Source: a virus. From it: 61,666 bases of DNA. Made by a program: the position numbers and the translations under genes. The notes under the pieces were generated by a model. It ran no database searches. It was given only the letters and a program-made list of their open reading frames with translations, and was not told where the DNA came from. Below are positions 7,893-58,204 of the stretch, one piece after another (within the stretch, counting starts at the first letter, position 1; each line of letters starts with the position of its first letter). Where the stretch lies: the IMG/VR virus record IMGVR_UViG_3300025133_000106; one strand, 5' to 3'.

Positions 7893-8831
7893 ATGGACCC
7901 TAAATCTGTCAACTGCGTTATTTATCATGGAAATTGTTCTGATGGTTTTGGCGCAGCATGGGCAGCATGGAAAGTCCTTGGCAATAAGGCTGAATATCAT
8001 GCAGCCTTTCATGGAAAAGCGCCACCTGACGTGACTGGTAAGCGTGTCGTCGTTCTTGATTTTGCATATGACAAAAAAATAACAAAACATTTAATTGCGA
8101 CTGCCGAAGATTTCGAAATGAGAGATCACCACAAGTCAGCAATGATGATGCTAGATGGAATAGCTAAACCAGACTGGTTTCAGTTGGGCAACAGCGGAGC
8201 AATTTTAGCATGGGAATATTTTCATCGAGGGATACCTGCGCCAAGGTTTCTGCAGTTCATAGAAAACAGAGATATGGGCTGGAAACCCTATATGGAATAC
8301 TCAAAAGAATTCTCGACAGCCTTTGATATGATCCCGCTAGAATTTCCAGCGTATGACAGAATGATGAATGCATCTGTTGTAGATGATTGTATTAGAAAGG
8401 GTTCACACATTTTACCTTACGCAGATGCTGCTATTGATAAAGTATGCTCAAAGGCAGTTAAGCGTAAGCTGCAAGAGCATTGTGTTCTTGTTGTTAACTC
8501 GACTCAGTGGATATCTGAGGTCGGCATGAGATTAGCGCCTGATTGCGATTATGCAATAGTGTGGTATTGGGATCATAATGAGAAATATGCGAAAGTTAGC
8601 TTACGATCTTTCCACGATCATATTGACTGCGGTTCGATCGCTAAGCGATTCGGAGGCGGAGGGCATGCGGAGATCGCAGGCTTTGAATACTCAGGAAACA
8701 TCGAAGACTTGTTTAAAAAGCAAATTAAAACCCTCCGAATTGAAACTAAGGATTCAGGAGCACAGCAACTTACCGGCTCGTCCGAGTTGGGATATGATCT
8801 GGATGTCGACAGCTCGTCTTTTGGCAAGTAG
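7893..8831 (+). CDS. DHH-family phosphoesterase (NrnA/RecJ-like core)
   Basis: Motifs HGNCSDGFG (I), VVVLDF (II), RDHH (III), GGGGHAE (IV). Confidence 0.7.
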   Translation: MDPKSVNCVIYHGNCSDGFGAAWAAWKVLGNKAEYHAAFHGKAPPDVTGKRVVVLDFAYDKKITKHLIATAEDFEMRDHHKSAMMMLDGIAKPDWFQLGNSGAILAWEYFHRGIPAPRFLQFIENRDMGWKPYMEYSKEFSTAFDMIPLEFPAYDRMMNASVVDDCIRKGSHILPYADAAIDKVCSKAVKRKLQEHCVLVVNSTQWISEVGMRLAPDCDYAIVWYWDHNEKYAKVSLRSFHDHIDCGSIAKRFGGGGHAEIAGFEYSGNIEDLFKKQIKTLRIETKDSGAQQLTGSSELGYDLDVDSSSFGK

Positions 8832-9189
8832 ATCAATTGATCCAAGAACAAAGGTTGGGTGTGTTATCGTTACTGGCGATAATTCACAAGTCTTAGCAGT
8901 TGGATACAATGGTGATCAGAAGGGCGGAACAAACATGGTCGAATCTGATGAACCTGGCAAGAGCGGCACAATACACGCTGAGGAGAATGCACTAATCAAA
9001 TGCGATTTTTCTAGTCATAAAGAGAAGATTATGTATCTTACAGTCAGTCCATGTGATCAATGTGCAAAGAAAATTATAAATGCAGAGATTGATGAAGTTG
9101 TTTATGATGTCGAATACAGAATTACGGATGGTATTGATAGACTAGAGGCTGCTGGTATCTTTGTAAGAAAGTTTAAAACAAATGAATAG
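8794..9189 (+). CDS. dCMP deaminase (cytidine/deoxycytidylate deaminase fold)
   Basis: Zinc motifs HAEENA and SPCDQCAKKI; start moved to internal ATG 8794 to avoid a long overlap with the DHH gene. Confidence 0.7.
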   Translation: MIWMSTARLLASRSIDPRTKVGCVIVTGDNSQVLAVGYNGDQKGGTNMVESDEPGKSGTIHAEENALIKCDFSSHKEKIMYLTVSPCDQCAKKIINAEIDEVVYDVEYRITDGIDRLEAAGIFVRKFKTNE

Positions 9190-9448
9190 ATACTTTATCA
9201 CGCAAGAAAACTTCTTTAAAAATAAGTTTTCGCAATTGTGCGAAGGCGACATGATTTTGCGTAGAGATCTTATAATAGATTGGCCTAAAAACGTCGCAAC
9301 AGAAGTGTTAATTGTTGCAAAGAGGTTACCTTCGACGGTGGCAGCAGTACAATTATTACCCTTGACCGGGATTTTTTTAATGAATGCTTTACCCTACGTG
9401 AGGACGAGGGAGTCTCGTATCAAGGAGACTTTATTATTGTACAAATGA
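9182..9448 (+). CDS. hypothetical small protein
   Basis: 88-aa ORF only. Confidence 0.3.
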   Translation: MNRYFITQENFFKNKFSQLCEGDMILRRDLIIDWPKNVATEVLIVAKRLPSTVAAVQLLPLTGIFLMNALPYVRTRESRIKETLLLYK

Positions 9449-9481
9449 ATAAAAAAGAGAGGGGATTATATATAATAGATA

Positions 9482-11272
9482 ATGCAATATGATTCTCCCA
9501 TAGCATTCTTTTTAGGTAAAGATGCTGATAAGCAAACACACAAAAGAATTAGAGATAAAGGCTTCAAAATTGTAGAGGGCACTTACGATGTCTTGGTTTA
9601 TCACCCTCTTCACTGGACAGTTAAATCACAAAATTCACTTGAAGAATCAATCAATGATAGAAGGTTTCTACCTCCCCATGGGCTACTTGAAGTGGGTGTT
9701 GATTTTCCCTATAGTCACGCAATAATTCCTGAAAGTGTGGAAGCGAAATTATTGCTTCGTTATTTATTTGGTTTATCTGAGGGCCAAACATACAGTGATT
9801 TGTTTAAAACACAAAATATCACCGAAGCAAAAGGCACAACAAGAAGAAGCTTCTTAAAGTCCATGGCTGCAGCCATGGGCACTGCAGCGACAGCAAATCC
9901 AGCAAAATTGGCAGGTGTAGCTAAGACTGCGATGACGCCTGCGGCAACAACGATAACAAGTCCAGGCGCTAGGGCTCTTTCATTCTTTGTAGCAAATGAA
10001 CTTGGTTATGCTTGGTCGAAAGCTGAGGTGTACAATCGCTGGGCCAAAATGAAAAAGCACATTGGTGTATTGGATCCTAAGATGAGAAAAGCAGAGGTTG
10101 CTAAACTGGAAAATGCTCTAAATGACACTATGAAGAGTTTTCCTGAAGGTGGTATTGAGGGATTACATAGTGATGAAGTGTTGGATGCCTTCGATGCCAA
10201 TATGGAGTTATTCGACAATTTATCAGGCTTTGGCACCCCTGCGTGGACTGATCAGGCGGCAAAAATATCTGATGACGCAAATCGGGAATGGTACAAAGAA
10301 GAATTTCCAGAAGATTTTGAAAAAGAAACTGAGCGTAATGATCAACAAGCTGATAAAGCTACCGACAATCATCACAGCACAGATCCAGGTGACGAAGACA
10401 TCACAGACACACCCTGGAGTGCGACAAGAATGGGCGACAGAAAGCAATGGAAAGGTGAAGATGATTTCATTGATGAAGCCAAGGGCACGACAAGAAGAAG
10501 CTTCTTGAAAAGTATGGCTGCAGCCATGGGCACTGCAGCGACAGCAAATCCAGCAAAATTGGCAGGTGTAGCAAAGGCAGCAATGAAACCAGCTTCGGTT
10601 GCTATAACAAGCCCAGGTGCTAAAGCACTTGCGTCGACAATCGCAGGAGAGCTTATATATGCTGCTTCAAAAGCTGCCTTATATGATCGCTTCAAAAAAT
10701 CAAAAGAAATTGCTTTTAAGCTTGACCCTACGATGAAAAAAGCAGAGATTTCTAAATTAGAGAATATTCTCGCTGATGCTACAAAAGACTTCGCCAACGG
10801 CCCAAATGGCATGAATTACGGTAGCATGAGTGATACAGCAGCAGACGCTCTTGAGTTGAAATCTGCAGCATTCGAAAAATTAGCAGGTCACGGAACCGGT
10901 GGATGGGATGAAGCAACAAGACAAATAAGCAGTGATGTTGACCATACATGGCATCGAGCTGAGTTTCCTGAATTATATAAGGACGTTCCTGAGGAATTAC
11001 GGCCTGTGGAGGATGATGAGTATGATGATAGTTTCCAACCACCAGATGATGACAATTATATATCCAACGTAGACCCAGGTGACGAAGACCTCATTAGCAC
11101 TCCCTGGAGTGCAACAAGAATGGGCGACAGAAAGCAATGGAAAGGTGAAGATGATTTCATTGATGAAGCAAAACAGTTCAGGATTGCGATCCCGTCTGTT
11201 CGTCATTTAAAGAAGGCATGGCCAAATGATAGAAAGGGCTGGACATCAGAGATTGATAAGGTATTAAAATGA
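9482..11272 (+). CDS. repeat protein with two internal Tat-signal-like modules
   Basis: Two ~217-aa tandem modules, each starting GTTRRSFLKSMAAAMGTAATANPAKLAGVAK and ending TPWSATRMGDRKQWKGEDDFIDEAK. Confidence 0.6.
   Translation: MQYDSPIAFFLGKDADKQTHKRIRDKGFKIVEGTYDVLVYHPLHWTVKSQNSLEESINDRRFLPPHGLLEVGVDFPYSHAIIPESVEAKLLLRYLFGLSEGQTYSDLFKTQNITEAKGTTRRSFLKSMAAAMGTAATANPAKLAGVAKTAMTPAATTITSPGARALSFFVANELGYAWSKAEVYNRWAKMKKHIGVLDPKMRKAEVAKLENALNDTMKSFPEGGIEGLHSDEVLDAFDANMELFDNLSGFGTPAWTDQAAKISDDANREWYKEEFPEDFEKETERNDQQADKATDNHHSTDPGDEDITDTPWSATRMGDRKQWKGEDDFIDEAKGTTRRSFLKSMAAAMGTAATANPAKLAGVAKAAMKPASVAITSPGAKALASTIAGELIYAASKAALYDRFKKSKEIAFKLDPTMKKAEISKLENILADATKDFANGPNGMNYGSMSDTAADALELKSAAFEKLAGHGTGGWDEATRQISSDVDHTWHRAEFPELYKDVPEELRPVEDDEYDDSFQPPDDDNYISNVDPGDEDLISTPWSATRMGDRKQWKGEDDFIDEAKQFRIAIPSVRHLKKAWPNDRKGWTSEIDKVLK
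9824..11172 (+). repeat. intragenic tandem duplication (~651-bp unit x2)
   Basis: Near-identical DNA at ~9824 and ~10475 (gaagc(a/c)aa(a/g)ggcac(a/g)acaagaagaagcttctt...ggctgcagccatgggcactgcagcgacagcaaatccagcaaaattggcaggtgtagc). Confidence 0.85.
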
Positions 11273-11850
11273 CATACGGGTTTATATATTCTAAGCTTTT
11301 GCCTGATGGTTCAAAAGAAAGAGCAAAAACACATAACATTTCTTTTTCTTCACTTGACGAAAAATTCGAATTCCTACAAGAATGTTCAGCAAAAGGCATT
11401 TTAACAGGCGTCCCAGCATGCGAGCTATTAGAACATGCCGGAAAGAAAAATATAATGTGGGTTGATATTGACACGCCTAATTATAAAGCTTTTAAATTAT
11501 GGGAGCAATCAGAAGCATTTCCTATTACTGGCGGCAGCTATGCTGCGATAAAGTCAGCCACAGGAAATATACATATGTACGTTTCTACTGATAGAAAACT
11601 ATCTGTTGATGAATGTTTTTCTATGGGCGAGTTAATTAGAGAAAGTGCACCGATGTCAATTCGCCCTTTTATTGATAGAATTTATGGCCCAGATAATTTA
11701 GAGCCTATCTTTATACCGGGGACCGCACAGAAACTAAATATTTTACCTCAATCATTACTAGAGAACATCCACGGAATTTATACTATCCCAAGCACAATAG
11801 AGGGAAGTGAATTTAGAGAATGGCAGAAACGTACGAATTATAAACTTTAA
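11269..11850 (+). CDS. hypothetical protein
   Basis: 193-aa ORF with 4-nt overlap. Confidence 0.5.
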   Translation: MTYGFIYSKLLPDGSKERAKTHNISFSSLDEKFEFLQECSAKGILTGVPACELLEHAGKKNIMWVDIDTPNYKAFKLWEQSEAFPITGGSYAAIKSATGNIHMYVSTDRKLSVDECFSMGELIRESAPMSIRPFIDRIYGPDNLEPIFIPGTAQKLNILPQSLLENIHGIYTIPSTIEGSEFREWQKRTNYKL

Positions 11851-11907
11851 TGACATAGCCATAATTTTGGCTTTACTTTTCTTACTACAATAATTAAGAT
11901 TAGGACT

Positions 11908-12186
11908 ATGACAAAATTAACTGAAGAAGACGCCATCAGAGCTATACGTGAAGGCTGGAATAAGAAGGCAGCTAACCTTGAACGTGGCCTTTTTGAGTTC
12001 CTAAAACATGACCCGTCTGAGCGAAAAGGTTTAATCGGCGTTGACACGAAGGTAAGACATAAGGGTTCGCAACTTCTCTATACTGTCGACTCTATCAAAC
12101 CTGACTCAATTATCCTTAGAACACCAGAGAATAAATTATTCCCAGTAAGTGACAAAGATTTTGAAGAAGACTACGAGCTAGACTAA
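11908..12186 (+). CDS. hypothetical protein
   Basis: 92-aa ORF. Confidence 0.45.
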   Translation: MTKLTEEDAIRAIREGWNKKAANLERGLFEFLKHDPSERKGLIGVDTKVRHKGSQLLYTVDSIKPDSIILRTPENKLFPVSDKDFEEDYELD

Positions 12187-12195
12187 GGATAACAG

Positions 12196-12876
12196 ATGGT
12201 AACAAGAAAAGATATATTAGCAGGCATTAAAAAAGACCTAAAGATTGATAAGCCTTTAAGTGAATCGTATGTCGCGTCAGAAAAGTCATATGATCTAAAT
12301 ACAGAGTTGCTAAGCGCAAAAACTAAGCAGACGCATATTAAGTTATATAAAGAGCGGATACAGGCTTTAAATGAAGTTAGTGCTGAACTTGACACTGCTG
12401 ATAGAGAAGCTGCCAACCATAACATGTCTGAGTTTCGAACGTTAAAAGCACTAGAAATGAGACATAGAAATTCTGTTATGCTGCATGAAATGTATTTCTC
12501 TAACATAAGTGACATTAGAAGTGAAATTTCATACGATTCAATCACATACATGAAGCTGGCAGCTAGTTTCGGCACATTCGATGATTGGCAGTGGGACTTT
12601 ATGGCATGCGCTGCCTCAGCAGACGAAGGTTGGGCAGTAACAGTTTATGATACATTTCTTAGGAGATACATCAATGTTATGATTGATGGTGATAGTAAAC
12701 ATATTCCCGTAGGGTGCTTTCCGATCGTAGTATTAGATGTTTGGGCACATTCATATTACAAAGACTATCTCGACAACAAGAACGGTTATATAGAGAACAT
12801 GATGCGTGAATTAAGGTGGGATGTTATTGAAGAGCGCGTCCAACGCGCTGAAATGATAGCACAGGTAGTTAAATAA
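12196..12876 (+). CDS. Fe/Mn superoxide dismutase-like protein
   Basis: C-terminal DVWAHSYY (SOD signature DVWEHAYY) and LHEMYFSNI resembling NHSLFWKNL; overall two-domain layout. Confidence 0.5.
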   Translation: MVTRKDILAGIKKDLKIDKPLSESYVASEKSYDLNTELLSAKTKQTHIKLYKERIQALNEVSAELDTADREAANHNMSEFRTLKALEMRHRNSVMLHEMYFSNISDIRSEISYDSITYMKLAASFGTFDDWQWDFMACAASADEGWAVTVYDTFLRRYINVMIDGDSKHIPVGCFPIVVLDVWAHSYYKDYLDNKNGYIENMMRELRWDVIEERVQRAEMIAQVVK

Positions 12877-13514
12877 TGAACAAAATCACTATTTTAAGAA
12901 AGCTTATTTTTGAAACTTTATTGAATGAAGAGATTCGGTTGTCAAAAGATTCACTTGATGATCAGGTTGACGCAATTTTGCTTAGATTCGAAACTGATTG
13001 CATCGATCAAGAATCTGGGGGCAGCGAAGAGCTTGGTGATGATGAAACAATGAGTTTTGCAGAATCTATCTTACGTGAAGCTCCTGGTGATAAAGATGAG
13101 GAAGAGGATGATGATGAGTTTGCAAAAGAGGAAGAGCCTGTAGATCCCGAAGAAGCTCCAGCTGACGCAACGGACGAGCCAGAGGAAGAGGAAGAACCAG
13201 ACTTAACAACGGATGACGACTTCTCAGTTGAAGAAGATTCCGATCCACTCCAGCCAGCAATAGATCTTCATAAATTCGCGGGTAAAGTGTCTCGTCTTGC
13301 TACGAATTATCATAGTCTACTAGATATGCCTATAGCTATTGCGAATAGGGCTCGTAATTATTTAGAGCAAAACTACAGTCACACAGTCGCAACTGAGTTT
13401 GAAGAAATCTTGGAAAGAGAGTTTGATATAATTTTAGATCGCGAATCACTTGAAGAACCACGAGAGAAACCAATGGCTGTCGGCGCTGGTGCATCAGGTA
13501 TCGGGGGAGTATAA
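12876..13514 (+). CDS. highly acidic protein (Asp/Glu-rich)
   Basis: Long D/E tracts, e.g. DKDEEEDDDEFAKEEEPVDPEEAPADATDEPEEEEEPD. Confidence 0.55.
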   Translation: MNKITILRKLIFETLLNEEIRLSKDSLDDQVDAILLRFETDCIDQESGGSEELGDDETMSFAESILREAPGDKDEEEDDDEFAKEEEPVDPEEAPADATDEPEEEEEPDLTTDDDFSVEEDSDPLQPAIDLHKFAGKVSRLATNYHSLLDMPIAIANRARNYLEQNYSHTVATEFEEILEREFDIILDRESLEEPREKPMAVGAGASGIGGV

Positions 13515-13798
13515 TGTCACGCCGCCCATCAGAAATCGACATCAGAAAAGGCATCCATATTAAGCTTTTACCTCAAACTCATGCCGAATTTCGTGTTTTA
13601 TGCTTTAGAAAGGGCCTGTCTATGCAGGAAGTATTGGAAGAACTATCAGCGCTATGTATCCAGGAAAACCCGAAAATGATTAAAATTTTGGATAACCTTG
13701 CGGAAAGAAAGCGCGAAAAAACTCCAGTAAAATTAACAACAACTGACGCTGAATCTCTGTTTAATGAGATAGAAAGAGAGAGCCCATTTAATGATTAG
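13514..13798 (+). CDS. hypothetical protein
   Basis: 94-aa ORF, ATGA-type overlap. Confidence 0.45.
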   Translation: MSRRPSEIDIRKGIHIKLLPQTHAEFRVLCFRKGLSMQEVLEELSALCIQENPKMIKILDNLAERKREKTPVKLTTTDAESLFNEIERESPFND

Positions 13799-13813
13799 GC
13801 TTGAGGAAGTATT

Positions 13814-32234: not shown

Positions 32235-33902
<1,668 letters not shown>

Positions 33903-35582: not shown

Positions 35583-37448
35583 ATGAAGTTGAAATATATA
35601 CTTTTATCTATCTCCCTGCTTTTTATTGCTGCATGTGAAGATGATAACTTATCGAGAGTATGTCAGTCCCCACGCCCGTGTATAATAAATAACGGAAAAA
35701 TAATAACAGATAATCTTAAAGATTCTATTGGCACTTGCCAAAAGGGGATTACTTCATGCGATGCTAAAAATGAAATGGCATTTTGTGAAGGGTTCATCGG
35801 ACAAGTTAATGAAATCTGTGATGGTTTGGACAATGACTGCGATGGTTTAGTTGACGAAGGACATGATGGTGATGGTGATGGCTACAACTCTTGTGATAAC
35901 GATTGTAACGACAATATAGCCGAAATAAACCCAGGCGGGATAGAAATCTGCGATGGTTTTGATAATGACTGTAATGGTGTAATTGACAATTATTCACGGG
36001 ATTGCTGGACTGGTCCAGCTGTCGACAGTTATATTAGCCCTAGCGTTTGCAGAACTGGAAAACAAAGGTGTACTCATGGTGTGTGGGGACAATGTACAGG
36101 CGTTATTTTGCCGACACCAGAAACTTGCGATGGTTTTGATAATAATTGTGATGGTATTACTGACGAAGAAATTTTAGATTCATGCGGCCCGTCAAGTGAA
36201 GTTGGTTTGTGTCAACTTGGCACTCAAATATGTACATCAGAAGAAACATATTGCGTTGGTGCTGTACACCCTTCGCCTGAAATTTGCGATGGTTTTGATA
36301 ATGACTGTAATGGTGCAATTGATGAAGGGCTTGAGAGGTTATGCAGAACCTCATGTGAAAGTGGTATAGAAAGTTGCAACGTGGGCAACTGGATAGGGTG
36401 TAATGCTAGAAAACCAGTACGAGAAATATGTGATGGTTTTGATAATGACTGTGATGGGATAATCGATGAAGATTGTGCATGTACAGTCGGTGACGCTAGA
36501 GTATGCCGACAAAATGTCTTAGATCACGCTACGGGAGAGCTTATCAATTGCGGTACCGGCATTTCAATATGCGATTCTAATGGTGTATGGGGTACATGTT
36601 ATTCTTTTGCTACCGAGCCCGAAGTGTGTAATAACTGGGATGATGATTGCGACGGCACAATCGATGAGTTAACAGACGCATGCGGAGATCCTGCTACGGC
36701 TGGTATCGGACAATGCGTTTTAGGCGAGAGAACATGCACTTCAGGCATTTGGTCAAGCTGCATTGGACCAGTTTATCCTGAGCAAGAATCTTGTGATGGG
36801 GTTGACAATGACTGTGATGGGCTCATCGATGAGGATCTTACACCACATGATAAGGTAGATATAATTTTTGTGATAGATGGCTCAGGTTCAATGACACAAG
36901 CTATGTTCGCTCTGCAAGCAGGGATAAGTAATTATGTTGCAGACTTTCAAGGGACAGAACATAGGTTTGGTTTAGTTGTATTTCCTGGTAGAAGAGATAA
37001 TTATAATGTACTAGTAAATCTCGTTGATTTTACTGTATTTTCTGCAGCATTGAACAATCTTACCGCATCATATCCAGGTGTAGAGCCTTCATACGATGTA
37101 GTTCATGATTTAGCGAACAGCACAAATCCAGCACTTATCAATTGGAGAGAATCTACTGTAACATCAACAGGGGCATACCCTTACATCATTCTTATTACAG
37201 ACGAAGCAGCCCAGACAGTTGCTGGGTTCAATGAAAGTGATGTAGCGCTAAATACGAGCAACTGTGGTGTAGGTATATGCACACCAGGGGATGCATACGA
37301 AATGTATATAATAACACAAACACAGTTCTTTCTGCAATGGGATTCTATAGTCTTTAATGATGTGGCAAGATTGATAGAACTATATCCTCTAAATGCGTCC
37401 CGATACACAAACATTCTAAGGGGAATTTTTTCAAATGTGTGTAGATAA
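35583..37448 (+). CDS. lipoprotein with ~7 Cys-rich CDGxDNDCDGxxDE (MopE-like metal-binding) repeats and C-terminal VWA domain
   Basis: Lipobox LLFIAAC; repeated CDGFDNDC(D/N)G(I/A/L)IDE; MIDAS-like DIIFVIDGSGSM. Confidence 0.65.
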   Translation: MKLKYILLSISLLFIAACEDDNLSRVCQSPRPCIINNGKIITDNLKDSIGTCQKGITSCDAKNEMAFCEGFIGQVNEICDGLDNDCDGLVDEGHDGDGDGYNSCDNDCNDNIAEINPGGIEICDGFDNDCNGVIDNYSRDCWTGPAVDSYISPSVCRTGKQRCTHGVWGQCTGVILPTPETCDGFDNNCDGITDEEILDSCGPSSEVGLCQLGTQICTSEETYCVGAVHPSPEICDGFDNDCNGAIDEGLERLCRTSCESGIESCNVGNWIGCNARKPVREICDGFDNDCDGIIDEDCACTVGDARVCRQNVLDHATGELINCGTGISICDSNGVWGTCYSFATEPEVCNNWDDDCDGTIDELTDACGDPATAGIGQCVLGERTCTSGIWSSCIGPVYPEQESCDGVDNDCDGLIDEDLTPHDKVDIIFVIDGSGSMTQAMFALQAGISNYVADFQGTEHRFGLVVFPGRRDNYNVLVNLVDFTVFSAALNNLTASYPGVEPSYDVVHDLANSTNPALINWRESTVTSTGAYPYIILITDEAAQTVAGFNESDVALNTSNCGVGICTPGDAYEMYIITQTQFFLQWDSIVFNDVARLIELYPLNASRYTNILRGIFSNVCR

Positions 37449-39115: not shown

Positions 39116-39967
39116 GTGGCTAAACAAGATAGTGGTGGCGTAGGATTTTATCTTAAACAGATTGGTAAAAGACCTTTGCTTACAAAAGAACAAGAAATTA
39201 TTCTTTCTCAAAAAATTGAGGGCTTTGAGGATGTTAAATATACAAGAGAGCCTGATGGCGAAATAAGAATAGAATCTTCAAAAGCAATTAGCAAAAGTGA
39301 GAAATCAAGAGCTAAGAATAAGATGATAGAATCTAACTTACGCTTAGTTGTCTCGATAGCAAAAAGGTTCCAAAATAGAGGCTGCAGTCTTGATGACTTA
39401 ATCGCAGCAGGCAATATTGGTTTAATCAGAGCTACTGAGTTATTTGATTGGAGAAAAGGGTTTAGATTCTCAACATATGCAACTTGGTGGATTCGCCAAA
39501 ATATCGGGCGCGAAGTTGCATCACAAAGTAAGCAGATAAAGACCTCTGGTAGGGTTACTGACGTTTACGTTCGAATACAATTGGCACGTGATGAATTCAT
39601 TGAACTGCATGCACAAGAACCTACCTGCGCCGAGCTTGCATCGATAATAGGGGTGACTGAAACGACAGTCCAATCAGCAATTTCAGGTATTCCTTTGCTG
39701 GTATCTATTGATAAGCCCATTGGCTCAGATGGCGCTGACTCAAGAACATTAAAAGATGTAATAGAAGACGTCGACTCAGAATCCCCACTTGATTTAATTA
39801 ATAAAAAAGAACTTACTGCTCTCTTATCTGGGGTTTTAAACTCACTAAACCCTAGAGAAGAAAAGATACTTAGAATGAGATTTGGTTTAACGGAAAATCC
39901 AAAAGATCATAAAAAGTTTCCAATCTCCTCTAAAGAGTTAGAGAAGATGAAGGCTTCATGTGCTTAA
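39116..39967 (+). CDS. sigma-70 family RNA polymerase sigma factor (apparently lacking region 4.2)
   Basis: Region 2 NLRLVVSIAKRF...DLIAAGNIGLIRATELFD...FSTYATWWIRQNI; region 3/4.1 up to ILRMRFGL, then the ORF stops. Confidence 0.75.
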   Translation: MAKQDSGGVGFYLKQIGKRPLLTKEQEIILSQKIEGFEDVKYTREPDGEIRIESSKAISKSEKSRAKNKMIESNLRLVVSIAKRFQNRGCSLDDLIAAGNIGLIRATELFDWRKGFRFSTYATWWIRQNIGREVASQSKQIKTSGRVTDVYVRIQLARDEFIELHAQEPTCAELASIIGVTETTVQSAISGIPLLVSIDKPIGSDGADSRTLKDVIEDVDSESPLDLINKKELTALLSGVLNSLNPREEKILRMRFGLTENPKDHKKFPISSKELEKMKASCA

Positions 39968-56212: not shown

Positions 56213-58204
56213 ATGGCAAAAGTTAATTTAGAAAACAGAACATTAACGACAACTGGTATCGGCGATGAAATACGCTTCGAGATTTCTAATAAGGCCGGTG
56301 ATAACGCACACTTGATGCGTATCATGAGAGATCAGTTATATACAGATAATATATTGGCGGTGTTACGTGAATATGGGGCTAACGCTAGGGATGCAAATGC
56401 TGAAGCGGGTAATGAAGACATACCCATTAAAGTTAACTTACCAACCGCACTAACACCGACTCTAAAGATACGGGATAACGGCCCCGGCCTATCAGAGGAA
56501 GGTATACGAGTTTACGTTAGTTATGGCTCTTCTACTAAACGTGATACTAATGAACAAGTTGGTACACTTGGAATTGGGTCAAAAGCTGCATTCTCTTATA
56601 CATCATCATTTAACATAACTTCATGGCACAAAGGTATGAAGCGTGTATATAATGCTGCATTAGATGAATTAGATGAAGGCATTTTATGCTTGCTATACGA
56701 AGATGAGTGTGATATAGGTATAACAGGCGTCGAGATTGCAATTCCTGTAAAGCAAGCTGATCACAGAGCCTTCCTTTTGAAAGCAGGACATGTATTTAAG
56801 TACATGAGCGCAAACGTTAAATTTAATCTCCCTGACGTTATATCTGATAGATTAGATGATGTGACTTTCAAGGGTACAAAAGCAGAACTTTTACGCCGGG
56901 CCAACAATAATGAAGCAGTTATGGGAGGTATTTCATACAAAGTTTCATCAGAAGAAATTACTAGTGTGATGAATACCAATGACTATGATTTCGGCTGGTA
57001 CTCAAGATTCAGGTTTTTCTTTGACATAGGTGAAGTGGACTTCACGGCAAACAGAGAAGAGTTAAAATACACTCCAAGAACAAGGGCGGCACTAAAGAAA
57101 ACAATTTCAACCCTTTATACAGATTTACTAGCAAAACTACATAAAGTTAAAAATTCTCAATGTTCATCTTGGGAGAAGAAAATATTCTATTATAAGTTTT
57201 GCAATGCTGGAATTAAACTGCCCTTTAATTTTAAGCCGAAGAGTTTTATATGCAAAAGAGCAAAAACTTTTAACGGAAAAAGAGCACTACTTCCTCCTAA
57301 AAAACAAACGCAGATCATTATTATTGATACAAGAAAAGCACTTAAAGGGTACATGATACCATCAGGTGCTGTTACGTTACGACCTGCAACAGGATGCACG
57401 GCAGATGATGTTTTTGCTGAATTGGAATCTCTGGTTGCAGAGCAAGGATGCGAAGGTATACCAATTAGTAGAATTTCATCTTTACCTTGGACTGGTAAAG
57501 ATGTACCAAAGAAAGTACCAAACTCAAAACATGGGCATAGGGCATTTCGTCTTATGCCCCAAGCTGTTTACTCGTTGCAATCAGAAAACTGGATACCCAG
57601 GGTGTCGCTACAAGCAGATACTGACGTATACTTTCTTTTGTGTAGATTTGTGCCCCATGAAATGAAAAATTATCTTGATATTATTGATAAAGACAAGAAA
57701 GTTGCAGCTAAACTTGGCATTGATTTTCCAAAAATTTACGGGTACAAATCTACAGAAAAATCGCCGGTAAAGCCTGGAACCGTAAAGGGTATATCATATT
57801 CGGCATGGCGAGCTACCTTCTATGAAGAAATACAAAAGCACCCTTTAGTGATCGATGAACTTAGAAATATCGCTTGGAAAAACCACCGTATTAGTAGCAC
57901 TTGGAGATACACAAACGCAACATCACTTTTGTTAAAAAGTACAAAATCTATACTTCCTGCTGAACACATATTATCAAGGTATCTAAATGCAGCGACAAAA
58001 GGCATCTCATGGAAATGGACAAATTTTCAATATCTTTTATCACAATGTAAAGGTATTGTGTACCCAACAGAACATGAAGATTATCTAGCTTTGCTTTCTG
58101 CGGATTACCCTCTTTTGATGAAGTGTTTTGGTGAAGTAAATGAGGGTACTATCACAGACTGGGTGGATTACATTCTATTAAAGGACGCTGCAAAAGCAGC
58201 ATAA
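56213..58204 (+). CDS. rIIA: rIIA-like protein (GHKL/Bergerat-fold ATPase)
   Basis: N-box VLREYGANARDA, G1 IRDNGPGL, G2 region VGTLGIGSKAAFSYTSSFNITSWHKG closely resembling T4 rIIA [22 protein letters not shown] (from memory); 663 aa. Confidence 0.7.
   Translation: MAKVNLENRTLTTTGIGDEIRFEISNKAGDNAHLMRIMRDQLYTDNILAVLREYGANARDANAEAGNEDIPIKVNLPTALTPTLKIRDNGPGLSEEGIRVYVSYGSSTKRDTNEQVGTLGIGSKAAFSYTSSFNITSWHKGMKRVYNAALDELDEGILCLLYEDECDIGITGVEIAIPVKQADHRAFLLKAGHVFKYMSANVKFNLPDVISDRLDDVTFKGTKAELLRRANNNEAVMGGISYKVSSEEITSVMNTNDYDFGWYSRFRFFFDIGEVDFTANREELKYTPRTRAALKKTISTLYTDLLAKLHKVKNSQCSSWEKKIFYYKFCNAGIKLPFNFKPKSFICKRAKTFNGKRALLPPKKQTQIIIIDTRKALKGYMIPSGAVTLRPATGCTADDVFAELESLVAEQGCEGIPISRISSLPWTGKDVPKKVPNSKHGHRAFRLMPQAVYSLQSENWIPRVSLQADTDVYFLLCRFVPHEMKNYLDIIDKDKKVAAKLGIDFPKIYGYKSTEKSPVKPGTVKGISYSAWRATFYEEIQKHPLVIDELRNIAWKNHRISSTWRYTNATSLLLKSTKSILPAEHILSRYLNAATKGISWKWTNFQYLLSQCKGIVYPTEHEDYLALLSADYPLLMKCFGEVNEGTITDWVDYILLKDAAKAA

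Follow-up and report, generated by a model that had tools for sequence, protein, structure and literature searches.

An internal twin-arginine-like motif in a tandemly duplicated protein of an uncultured jumbo phage, encoded next to a predicted minimal primase-polymerase

The subject of this study is a single open reading frame (ORF) of 596 aa at 9482-11272 on the plus strand of a 61,666-nt stretch of viral DNA (IMG/VR record IMGVR_UViG_3300025133_000106), which we refer to in its entirety as the window, together with the protein family to which the ORF belongs. The protein begins with an N-terminal alpha/beta domain (residues 1-117; 9482-9832, +) that is delimited by alignments and is predicted by AlphaFold2 to contain strands and helices (pLDDT 55-85). 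It continues with two tandem modules and ends with a single C-terminal tail. Module 1 (residues 118-334, 217 aa; 9833-10483, +) consists of a twin-arginine (RR) motif with a linker, a helical bundle, an acidic tract, and an end region with the elements DPGDEDI, W.GE and FIDEAK. Module 2 (residues 335-564, 230 aa; 10484-11173, +) is its paralogue. The tandem duplication described in the initial annotation is real, whereas the size of 217 aa that had been given for both modules applies only to the first. The motif TRRSFLK is found at residues 120-126 (9839-9859, +) and 337-343 (10490-10510, +) as part of the sequence GTTRRSFLKSMAAAMGTAATANPAKLAGVAK, which occurs twice, at residues 118-148 and 335-365. 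Both modules close with TPWSATRMGDRKQWKGEDDFIDEAK, encoded at 10409-10483 (residues 310-334) and again at 11099-11173 (residues 540-564) on the plus strand, with four synonymous differences. As had been noticed initially, EAK stands at both module starts and before the tail; the full element is I-x-E-A-K (ITEAK at residues 113-117, IDEAK at 330-334 and 560-564). The tail, QFRIAIPSVRHLKKAWPNDRKGWTSEIDKVLK (residues 565-596; 11174-11269, +), corresponds to a family-wide pattern, IAIPSxKHLxKAW..W..EIDKIL. Directly downstream lies a partner gene of 193 aa (11269-11850, +) for a predicted minimal AEP catalytic domain, whose start overlaps the stop of the ORF (ATGA).

The protein family is very small, previously unannotated, and found in phages only. 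The family searches had a scope of about 15 billion proteins, with an exhaustive HMMER search over 1.84 billion representatives that returned five true relatives, and more were supplied by a profile search and by contigs that carry the partner gene. Seven relatives are known, one of them frameshifted, and all are on uncultured phage contigs: P0002 (400 aa), P0003 (349 aa, on a 194.9-kb contig), P0004 (355 aa), P0008 (364 aa), L008:8916-10004 (362 aa), L007:219-1304 (361 aa), and the frameshifted copy in L003. A HMMER match to P0007 was disregarded, being a low-complexity match to the acidic tract only. No relatives were found in cultured phages, IMG/VR or the GTDB genome set, and a word-indexed protein search returned only the query itself. 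Likewise, the DNA from 9000 to 12000 had no match in cultured phages, tblastn against cultured phages with the 596-aa protein, P0003 and the partner gave no match, and scans of viral_contigs and metagenome_contigs with patterns from the family alignment found nothing.

Every intact relative has the same layout, with one module fused to the same N-terminal domain. This domain of about 115 aa, with FFLGxDAD..KG[FY]xVVEGxYDxLVYHxxHW..PYSH, is the best conserved part of the family. It is followed by [ST]RRxF[LM][KS] and a flexible segment rich in Ala, Gly, Lys and Thr that varies in length, then by a helical domain with ExxYAAxKAALYDxWxKxK and an acidic tract, by D-G-F-D-D-[IL], a basic patch and W-M-G-E, and finally by the tail with its basic C-terminal helix. 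As the N-terminal domain is within the same ORF in every intact relative, the initially considered start-site artefact can be dismissed. The N-terminal domain and the module seemed to be separate genes in one case (P0005 and the next ORF, in L003), and this candidate was rejected because the split is merely a one-base homopolymer difference: a run of eight A residues at L003:2001-2030 interrupts the family gene, and the close relatives L004 and L008 have seven. The longer run may reflect either an error in sequencing or real variation at a slippery homopolymer. We also rejected a Toprim assignment of IVEGTYD in the N-terminal domain, as the motif order is wrong and no profile or fold match supports it. 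Profile searches with Pfam, PHROGs, NCBIfam and PDB sequences revealed no relationship except to Tat-signal models. The AlphaFold2 model of the whole protein, built on a shallow alignment, is of low confidence (pLDDT 52.7), with a mixed alpha/beta N-terminal domain at 55-85, two helical bundles at up to 88, and values below 40 across both RR/linker regions and both acidic tracts.

The RR motif reads [ST]RRxF[LM] in all eight intact family copies, with K at the next position in six of them, and the residues that flank it vary on both sides. Different phages use different codons for the two arginines (AGA AGA, CGT CGT, AGG CGT), which argues that selection acts on the peptide. Similarly, the serine behind the motif is encoded by TCC at residue 127 and by AGT at residue 344 in the window protein, and since a single synonymous step cannot interconvert these codons, RRSFLKS is held by protein-level selection, not by recent copying alone. 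The best-scoring stretch in TIGR01409, a model for signals of the twin-arginine translocation (Tat) pathway, is residues 336-359, and Pfam TAT_signal matches four of the seven rows of our family alignment A1 (E up to 10; best E 1.6e-4). P0002 is the only member that passes the TIGR01409 cut-off (18.7 versus 16.7). The resemblance to Tat signals recognized in the initial annotation has therefore proven to be real, and we roughly estimate the chance that a conserved 7-mer matches the Tat consensus at about 4e-5 per protein. In the window copies, an uncharged stretch of 15 residues, SMAAAMGTAATANPA, begins at RR+5 and is followed by a possible signal-peptidase site, ATA|N. The Kyte-Doolittle hydropathy of this stretch is 0.58, and P0002 has 11 uncharged residues after the motif. 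The 117 residues before the motif contain no hydrophobic segment (maximal 15-residue hydropathy 1.0), and nowhere in the 596-aa protein does a 15-residue segment exceed 1.2. The pLDDT below 40 in the RR region (residues 108-156 around copy 1) is consistent with a flexible, exposed segment.

The position of the motif is internal in every member, at residues 120 and 337 in the window protein and at 123-131 in the relatives. Homologues with the motif at a true N-terminus, for which the initial annotation had proposed to look, are absent among the relatives, the apparent exception in L003 being the homopolymer frameshift. An internal segment unrelated to export had also been considered at the outset, and of this proposal the sequences bear out the conserved internal position. 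In five of the seven orthologues, a Met directly precedes [ST]RR (MTRR, MSRR), and Thr is found there in both window copies and Phe in L007. The sequence upstream of Met-[ST]RR is A-rich, in genomes without Shine-Dalgarno motifs. The preceding residues vary from EAK-M in the P0008 group to EKKG-M, EAS-G-M, NRQ-M and NKK-F, and only the window protein and the P0008 group have I-x-EAK before the motif. Judged from these alignments, the motif appears to be a conserved, built-in internal element and not the head of a polyprotein unit. A literature search on phage Tat signals or internal Tat signals found nothing relevant.

The partner gene, of 189-194 aa, lies directly downstream of the family gene in seven of the eight loci. 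In five loci, among them the window (11269-11272), the first 4 nt of the partner are also the last 4 nt of the family gene. The two genes are contiguous in L002 and have a 70-aa ORF between them in L007, and the 7-kb contig L006 is the only one without the partner. No Pfam match above noise was obtained (Prim-Pol, E 0.11 with one member). The AlphaFold2 model, however, is confident (pLDDT 88.5) and has an AEP fold, and D66-x-D68, H102 and D136, which we take to be the three AEP catalytic motifs (DxD, sxH, hD), are invariant in six sequences. On the basis of this model, we identified the partner as a predicted minimal AEP primase-polymerase catalytic domain without an accessory domain. Scans with the partner alignment found two loci in metagenome_contigs and none in viral_contigs and genome_contigs. 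In five related loci, the cassette is divergent from the finger-domain gene of a split, sometimes intein-bearing DnaE, and the family gene heads the transcription unit. The pieces of the split DnaE (Pol III alpha) are at L002:8969-9910 and 11621-13810, L004:2604-3926, L006:267-947, L003:955-1626 and L008:7924-8844, with intein signatures in those of L004 and L006. In L002, the two-gene cassette lies between the DnaE pieces on the opposite strand, and in L006 a long series of small ORFs, resembling an early-gene array, begins with the family gene. Overall, the setting of the family gene is an early or replication setting, not one among structural genes.

A further contig, L011, was considered as a fusion of the family protein with an AEP domain, and this was dropped because the family profile gave only E 0.12 in a tiny database. 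L011:5088-6319 encodes a divergent AEP domain that is 44% identical to the window partner and has a long, acidic N-terminal extension with GYGYG repeats. The resemblance of an upstream 70-aa ORF to the family N-terminal domain is not significant (E 0.12), and a frameshift may separate it from the AEP ORF.

Compared over their aligned codons, the two modules of the window protein agree at 65% of DNA positions and at 59% of residues. The first 31 module codons encode identical protein with a synonymous divergence (dS) of 0.25, and the last 25 codons do so with a dS of 0.40, whereas the 156-codon middle has only 44% protein identity, a saturated dS of about 2.2, and a nonsynonymous divergence (dN) of 0.56 (dN/dS about 0.26). 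The observation that the DNA copies are nearly identical is thus real for the module ends and was overstated for the modules as a whole. Tandem Repeats Finder reported nothing at 9482-11272. The linker contains an exact 59-nt repeat (9863-9921 and 10514-10572, +; codons 128-147 and 345-364), for which no counterpart is expected in shuffled sequences. This segment is the least conserved part of the module among orthologues, and since it is here, in the most variable segment, that 19 consecutive codons are identical, purifying selection alone is an insufficient explanation. The simplest account that can be inferred is that gene conversion homogenised the module ends, and the dS profile fits the concerted evolution that had been suggested initially, restricted to these ends. 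The module cores have drifted to 44% identity under purifying selection while both ends stayed nearly identical.

Core identity between the two window modules is 45%, versus 17-32% to any orthologue, and both contain an insertion that the orthologues lack. As the modules are each other's closest relatives and have this insertion in common, the duplication arose within the lineage of the window phage. A recent duplication, the other initial suggestion, is contradicted by the saturated dS and the 45% identity of the cores; the tandem duplication is old, and the second module is neither a fresh copy nor an allele brought in from elsewhere. That IDEAK stands before module 2 and again before the tail is an automatic outcome of the tandem duplication, and the ITEAK that closes the N-terminal domain is the only non-trivial I-x-EAK similarity in the window protein. 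The single module of P0008 is flanked likewise (LIEAK|MTRR and MGEAK|VGIPS). Such a short similarity on both sides of the ancestral module could have given rise to an unequal crossover.

The near-identical module ends, where assemblers can mis-join, could suggest that the duplication arose during assembly or by chimeric joining of alleles from two strains, which we consider extremely improbable. Two records, an ENA contig of 308,593 bp and a JGI contig, contain the identical 596-aa protein, although their assemblies are possibly not independent. Threading two alleles together could not create the EAK|GTTRR junction at 10483/10484; this junction of module end and module start exists in no single-module allele, and therefore reads must span it. 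Moreover, the copies have diverged, the reading frame is uninterrupted, and purifying selection acts on the cores. The artefact that had been raised as an option in the initial annotation thus does not hold, and the ORF represents a true gene of an uncultured jumbo phage with a size of about 308 kb.

Two further observations concern the repeated DNA. A perfect 18-nt palindrome, CCATGGCTGCAGCCATGG, is present at 9861-9878 within copy 1, where it comprises NcoI-PstI-NcoI sites and encodes SMAAAMG. The second module copy retains the inner 14 of these 18 nt (10514-10527), and chance alone would yield about 0.2 palindromes of this kind per window. The identical 59-nt stretch was considered as an RNA element and rejected, as its fold z-score of -1.2 is not significant.

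We tentatively favour the view that the family gene product is an early phage protein, or one associated with replication, and carries at an internal site a docking or targeting peptide that derives from a Tat signal and stays uncleaved. In the window lineage, the module was duplicated, and its ends would have been homogenised by gene conversion. The RR peptide would be the head of a Tat signal that has turned internal, and the Met before [ST]RR would be what is left of the initiation codon of a one-time Tat precursor fused to an upstream gene, or a copy of that codon still in use. Exposed on a flexible linker and left uncleaved, the peptide would now serve for docking or targeting, most likely to TatBC, the Tat receptor of the host, from its cytoplasmic side. 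Where the uncharged stretch is usable, as in the window phage and P0002, loop insertion or export of the downstream part may occur. The protein would act together with the AEP primase-polymerase encoded directly downstream, the two modules would provide two docking peptides per molecule, and a proteolytic release of units would not be required. A more far-reaching version is Tat-signal mimicry, in which the exposed internal RRxFLK peptides would dock the AEP primase complex on TatBC at the inner membrane and thereby tether phage DNA replication to this membrane or, during takeover, jam Tat export; we regard it as quite unlikely, and we are not aware of any report in which the Tat targeting code is used in this manner.

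Several points weigh against the docking-peptide reading. The RR motif is never N-terminal and always follows the same N-terminal domain. In P0003 and the L007 orthologue, charges occur every 5-9 residues after RR, and in P0004 and P0008 lysines come first and a 27-residue uncharged run begins only at RR+16. As the uncharged stretch is interrupted or displaced in these relatives, classical Tat export is doubtful for much of the family. The window protein itself remains slightly below both curated cut-offs, with 21.1 versus 22.7 bits in Pfam TAT_signal (PF10518) and 16.1 versus 16.7 in TIGR01409. The replication-module context points to a cytoplasmic job, in which RRxFLK possibly binds something else. 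Profile and structure searches detected no homology that would give the N-terminal domain or the helical bundle a function, and Foldseek with the low-confidence model found nothing with E <0.2 in PDB and BFVD, the matches being generic helical-bundle noise. Furthermore, the conservation rests on only eight sequences with correspondingly thin statistics, and the Tat target in the host is a predicted one.

It is also possible, although we rate it as less probable than not, that the motif is unrelated to Tat and matches its consensus by coincidence. The protein would then work in the cytoplasm as an accessory or scaffold subunit for the neighbouring AEP primase, and RRxFLK would be a basic peptide in contact with the primase, the polymerase or nucleic acid. 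The partner gene would be well explained in this way, with its presence in seven of eight loci, the usual stop/start overlap, the AEP fold with intact catalytic residues and the lack of an accessory domain, as would DnaE, which adjoins the gene in five loci, and the non-conserved uncharged stretch after RR. The protein also combines helical bundles and an acidic tract with D-G-F-D-D-[IL], which resembles the tail of SSB, and such a combination is typical of replisome adaptors. What this alternative leaves unexplained is that the Tat-consensus positions are kept across orthologues of only 17-52% identity and are followed by an Ala/Gly-rich segment, that several members match Tat hidden Markov models, and that a chance match has the low expectation estimated above. 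The helical bundle also has no detectable similarity to known primase accessory domains, and the 596-aa protein has no Cys residue for a Zn or Fe-S site. If the motif instead were a working internal Tat signal, it would act by a loop mechanism: the N-terminal domain would stay cytoplasmic, TatBC would bind the RR motif, and both modules would be exported in the folded state and released by signal peptidase at ATA|N. The released product could, for instance, modify the envelope early in infection or serve in superinfection exclusion. The consensus, the 11-15 uncharged residues from RR+5 and the small-x-small sites of the window copies and P0002 are compatible with export, as are the TIGR01409 score of P0002 and the position of the L006 gene at the head of an apparent early-gene array. 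In thylakoids, Tat signals tolerate N-terminal extensions in front of them, and actinobacterial Rieske-type proteins provide examples of internal Tat signals. Nevertheless, we regard export as unlikely: the charges in P0003 and L007 and the displacement to RR+16 in P0004 and P0008 disrupt the required stretch, whose hydropathy in the window protein is low, the second RR copy would be left without a role, and the coupling to a primase gene is hard to square with a periplasmic product.

Least probable among these readings of the motif, and in our view improbable, is that separate Tat precursors are generated, either by cleavage at I-x-E|A-K or EAK|G, as in the polyprotein proposed in the initial annotation, or by internal starts at the Met before [ST]RR. 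I-x-E-A-K is indeed present at all three window junctions, P0008 has comparable junctions, and the frequent Met with its A-rich upstream sequence, in genomes without Shine-Dalgarno motifs, would suit internal initiation. However, the intact relatives are fused single-module units, and the junction is not conserved (EKKG, EAS-G, NRQ and NKK elsewhere); in place of the Met, both window copies have Thr and L007 has Phe; duplication by itself accounts for two of the three IDEAK/ITEAK occurrences; the scanned window ORFs, from 62 kb of about 308 kb, gave neither a protease gene nor a link to virions; and the apparently split gene of L003 reduces to eight instead of seven A residues. Since the EAK junction, the uncharged stretch and the preceding Met all fail across the family, obligatory internal initiation and EAK|G cleavage are not supported by the sequences compared.

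All but three of the 84 substantial ORFs of the window are on the plus strand, and they include genes for rIIA (56213-58204), GroEL (32241-33902; phrog_5725, E 3.6e-153), a sigma-70-type factor with regions 2-4 (39323-39967), an ATP-dependent DNA ligase, thymidylate synthase, dCMP deaminase and a DHH/DHHA1 protein (both within 7893-9189), a Fe/Mn superoxide dismutase-like protein and a 5'-3' exonuclease. The best identity of rIIA to any cultured phage is below 40%, and the phage has no close cultured relative. Among the scanned window ORFs, which represent 62 kb of about 308 kb, there was no protease or structural/head gene. When read from its first start, the dCMP-deaminase ORF overlaps the DHH/DHHA1 gene by about 250 nt; translation probably begins farther downstream, in agreement with the 131-aa gene call of L001. 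An 858-aa ORF at 43835-46411 (+) is vault-protein-like (Pfam major vault protein shoulder, 69 bits, E 3.8e-19; vault repeat, 34 bits). A 621-aa protein encoded at 35583-37448 (+) has six MopE-type Cys-rich metal-binding motifs and a VWA domain, and a similar Cys-rich ORF at L011:3141-4310 (CDGxDNDCDG), recognized by eye, adjoins the divergent AEP gene. AT-rich leaders such as TATATAATAGATA-ATG precede the start of the family gene, in the window at 9452-9481 and likewise in L002, L004, L005 and L006, and no Shine-Dalgarno motif was seen close to those starts that were inspected in this group of phages. The host may thus be one in which initiation is independent of Shine-Dalgarno motifs, e.g., of the Bacteroidota.

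In summary, our analysis defines a previously unannotated two-gene cassette of an RR-motif protein and a predicted minimal AEP primase-polymerase in a clade of jumbo phages that are uncultured and encode DnaE, and it provides a clear example of an old tandem domain duplication whose ends have been kept identical. A conserved, consensus-like Tat motif in a primase-linked protein is in an unusual place, and this statement is based on eight sequences. Should the motif engage the Tat system, it would be a phage-encoded internal Tat-type peptide that follows a soluble domain and lies outside the known classes, which to our knowledge are N-terminal signals and Rieske-type internal signals after transmembrane helices, and it would point to a new way in which phages use or block a host export pathway. 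Should it not, the family would be a cautionary case of a perfect and conserved Tat consensus in a cytoplasmic replication protein, with which Tat predictors could be calibrated.

The protein can be compared with several known systems. With Tat signal peptides (PF10518, TIGR01409), it has in common the consensus [ST]-R-R-x-F-L-K, the weakly hydrophobic stretch rich in Ala, Gly and Thr, and, in the window, an A-x-A-like site, and Tat models are the only profile matches of the family. It differs in that the motif follows a folded domain and lies about 120 residues into the protein (in the window also at 335), in that the uncharged stretch is not conserved, and in that the window protein scores below both curated cut-offs. 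A functional non-N-terminal twin-arginine motif exists in actinobacterial Rieske proteins of the QcrA type, which are jointly inserted by Sec and Tat. The likeness lies in the distance of the motif from the N-terminus. The QcrA motifs, however, are situated between transmembrane helices inserted by Sec and a further, true transmembrane helix, whereas the window protein has neither, and the stretch after its motif is too polar for an anchor. The sites at three window junctions (I-T-E|A-K and I-D-E|A-K) are reminiscent of substrates of T4-type prohead proteases, which cut phage proteins at L/I-x-E sites. Unlike such substrates, the sites are not conserved in the orthologues, the gene lies among nucleotide-metabolism and replication genes, and the scanned window ORFs contain neither protease nor head genes. 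Finally, other AEP primases need accessory parts, either PriL/PriX-type subunits or helix-bundle domains as in pRN1 ORF904 and the NrS-1 primase-polymerase. The all-helical module of our family, encoded beside a minimal AEP catalytic domain with which it is probably co-translated, resembles these accessory subunits in its arrangement, although neither sequence nor fold similarity was detected and Cys ligands are absent. We know of no AEP accessory subunit with anything resembling a Tat motif.

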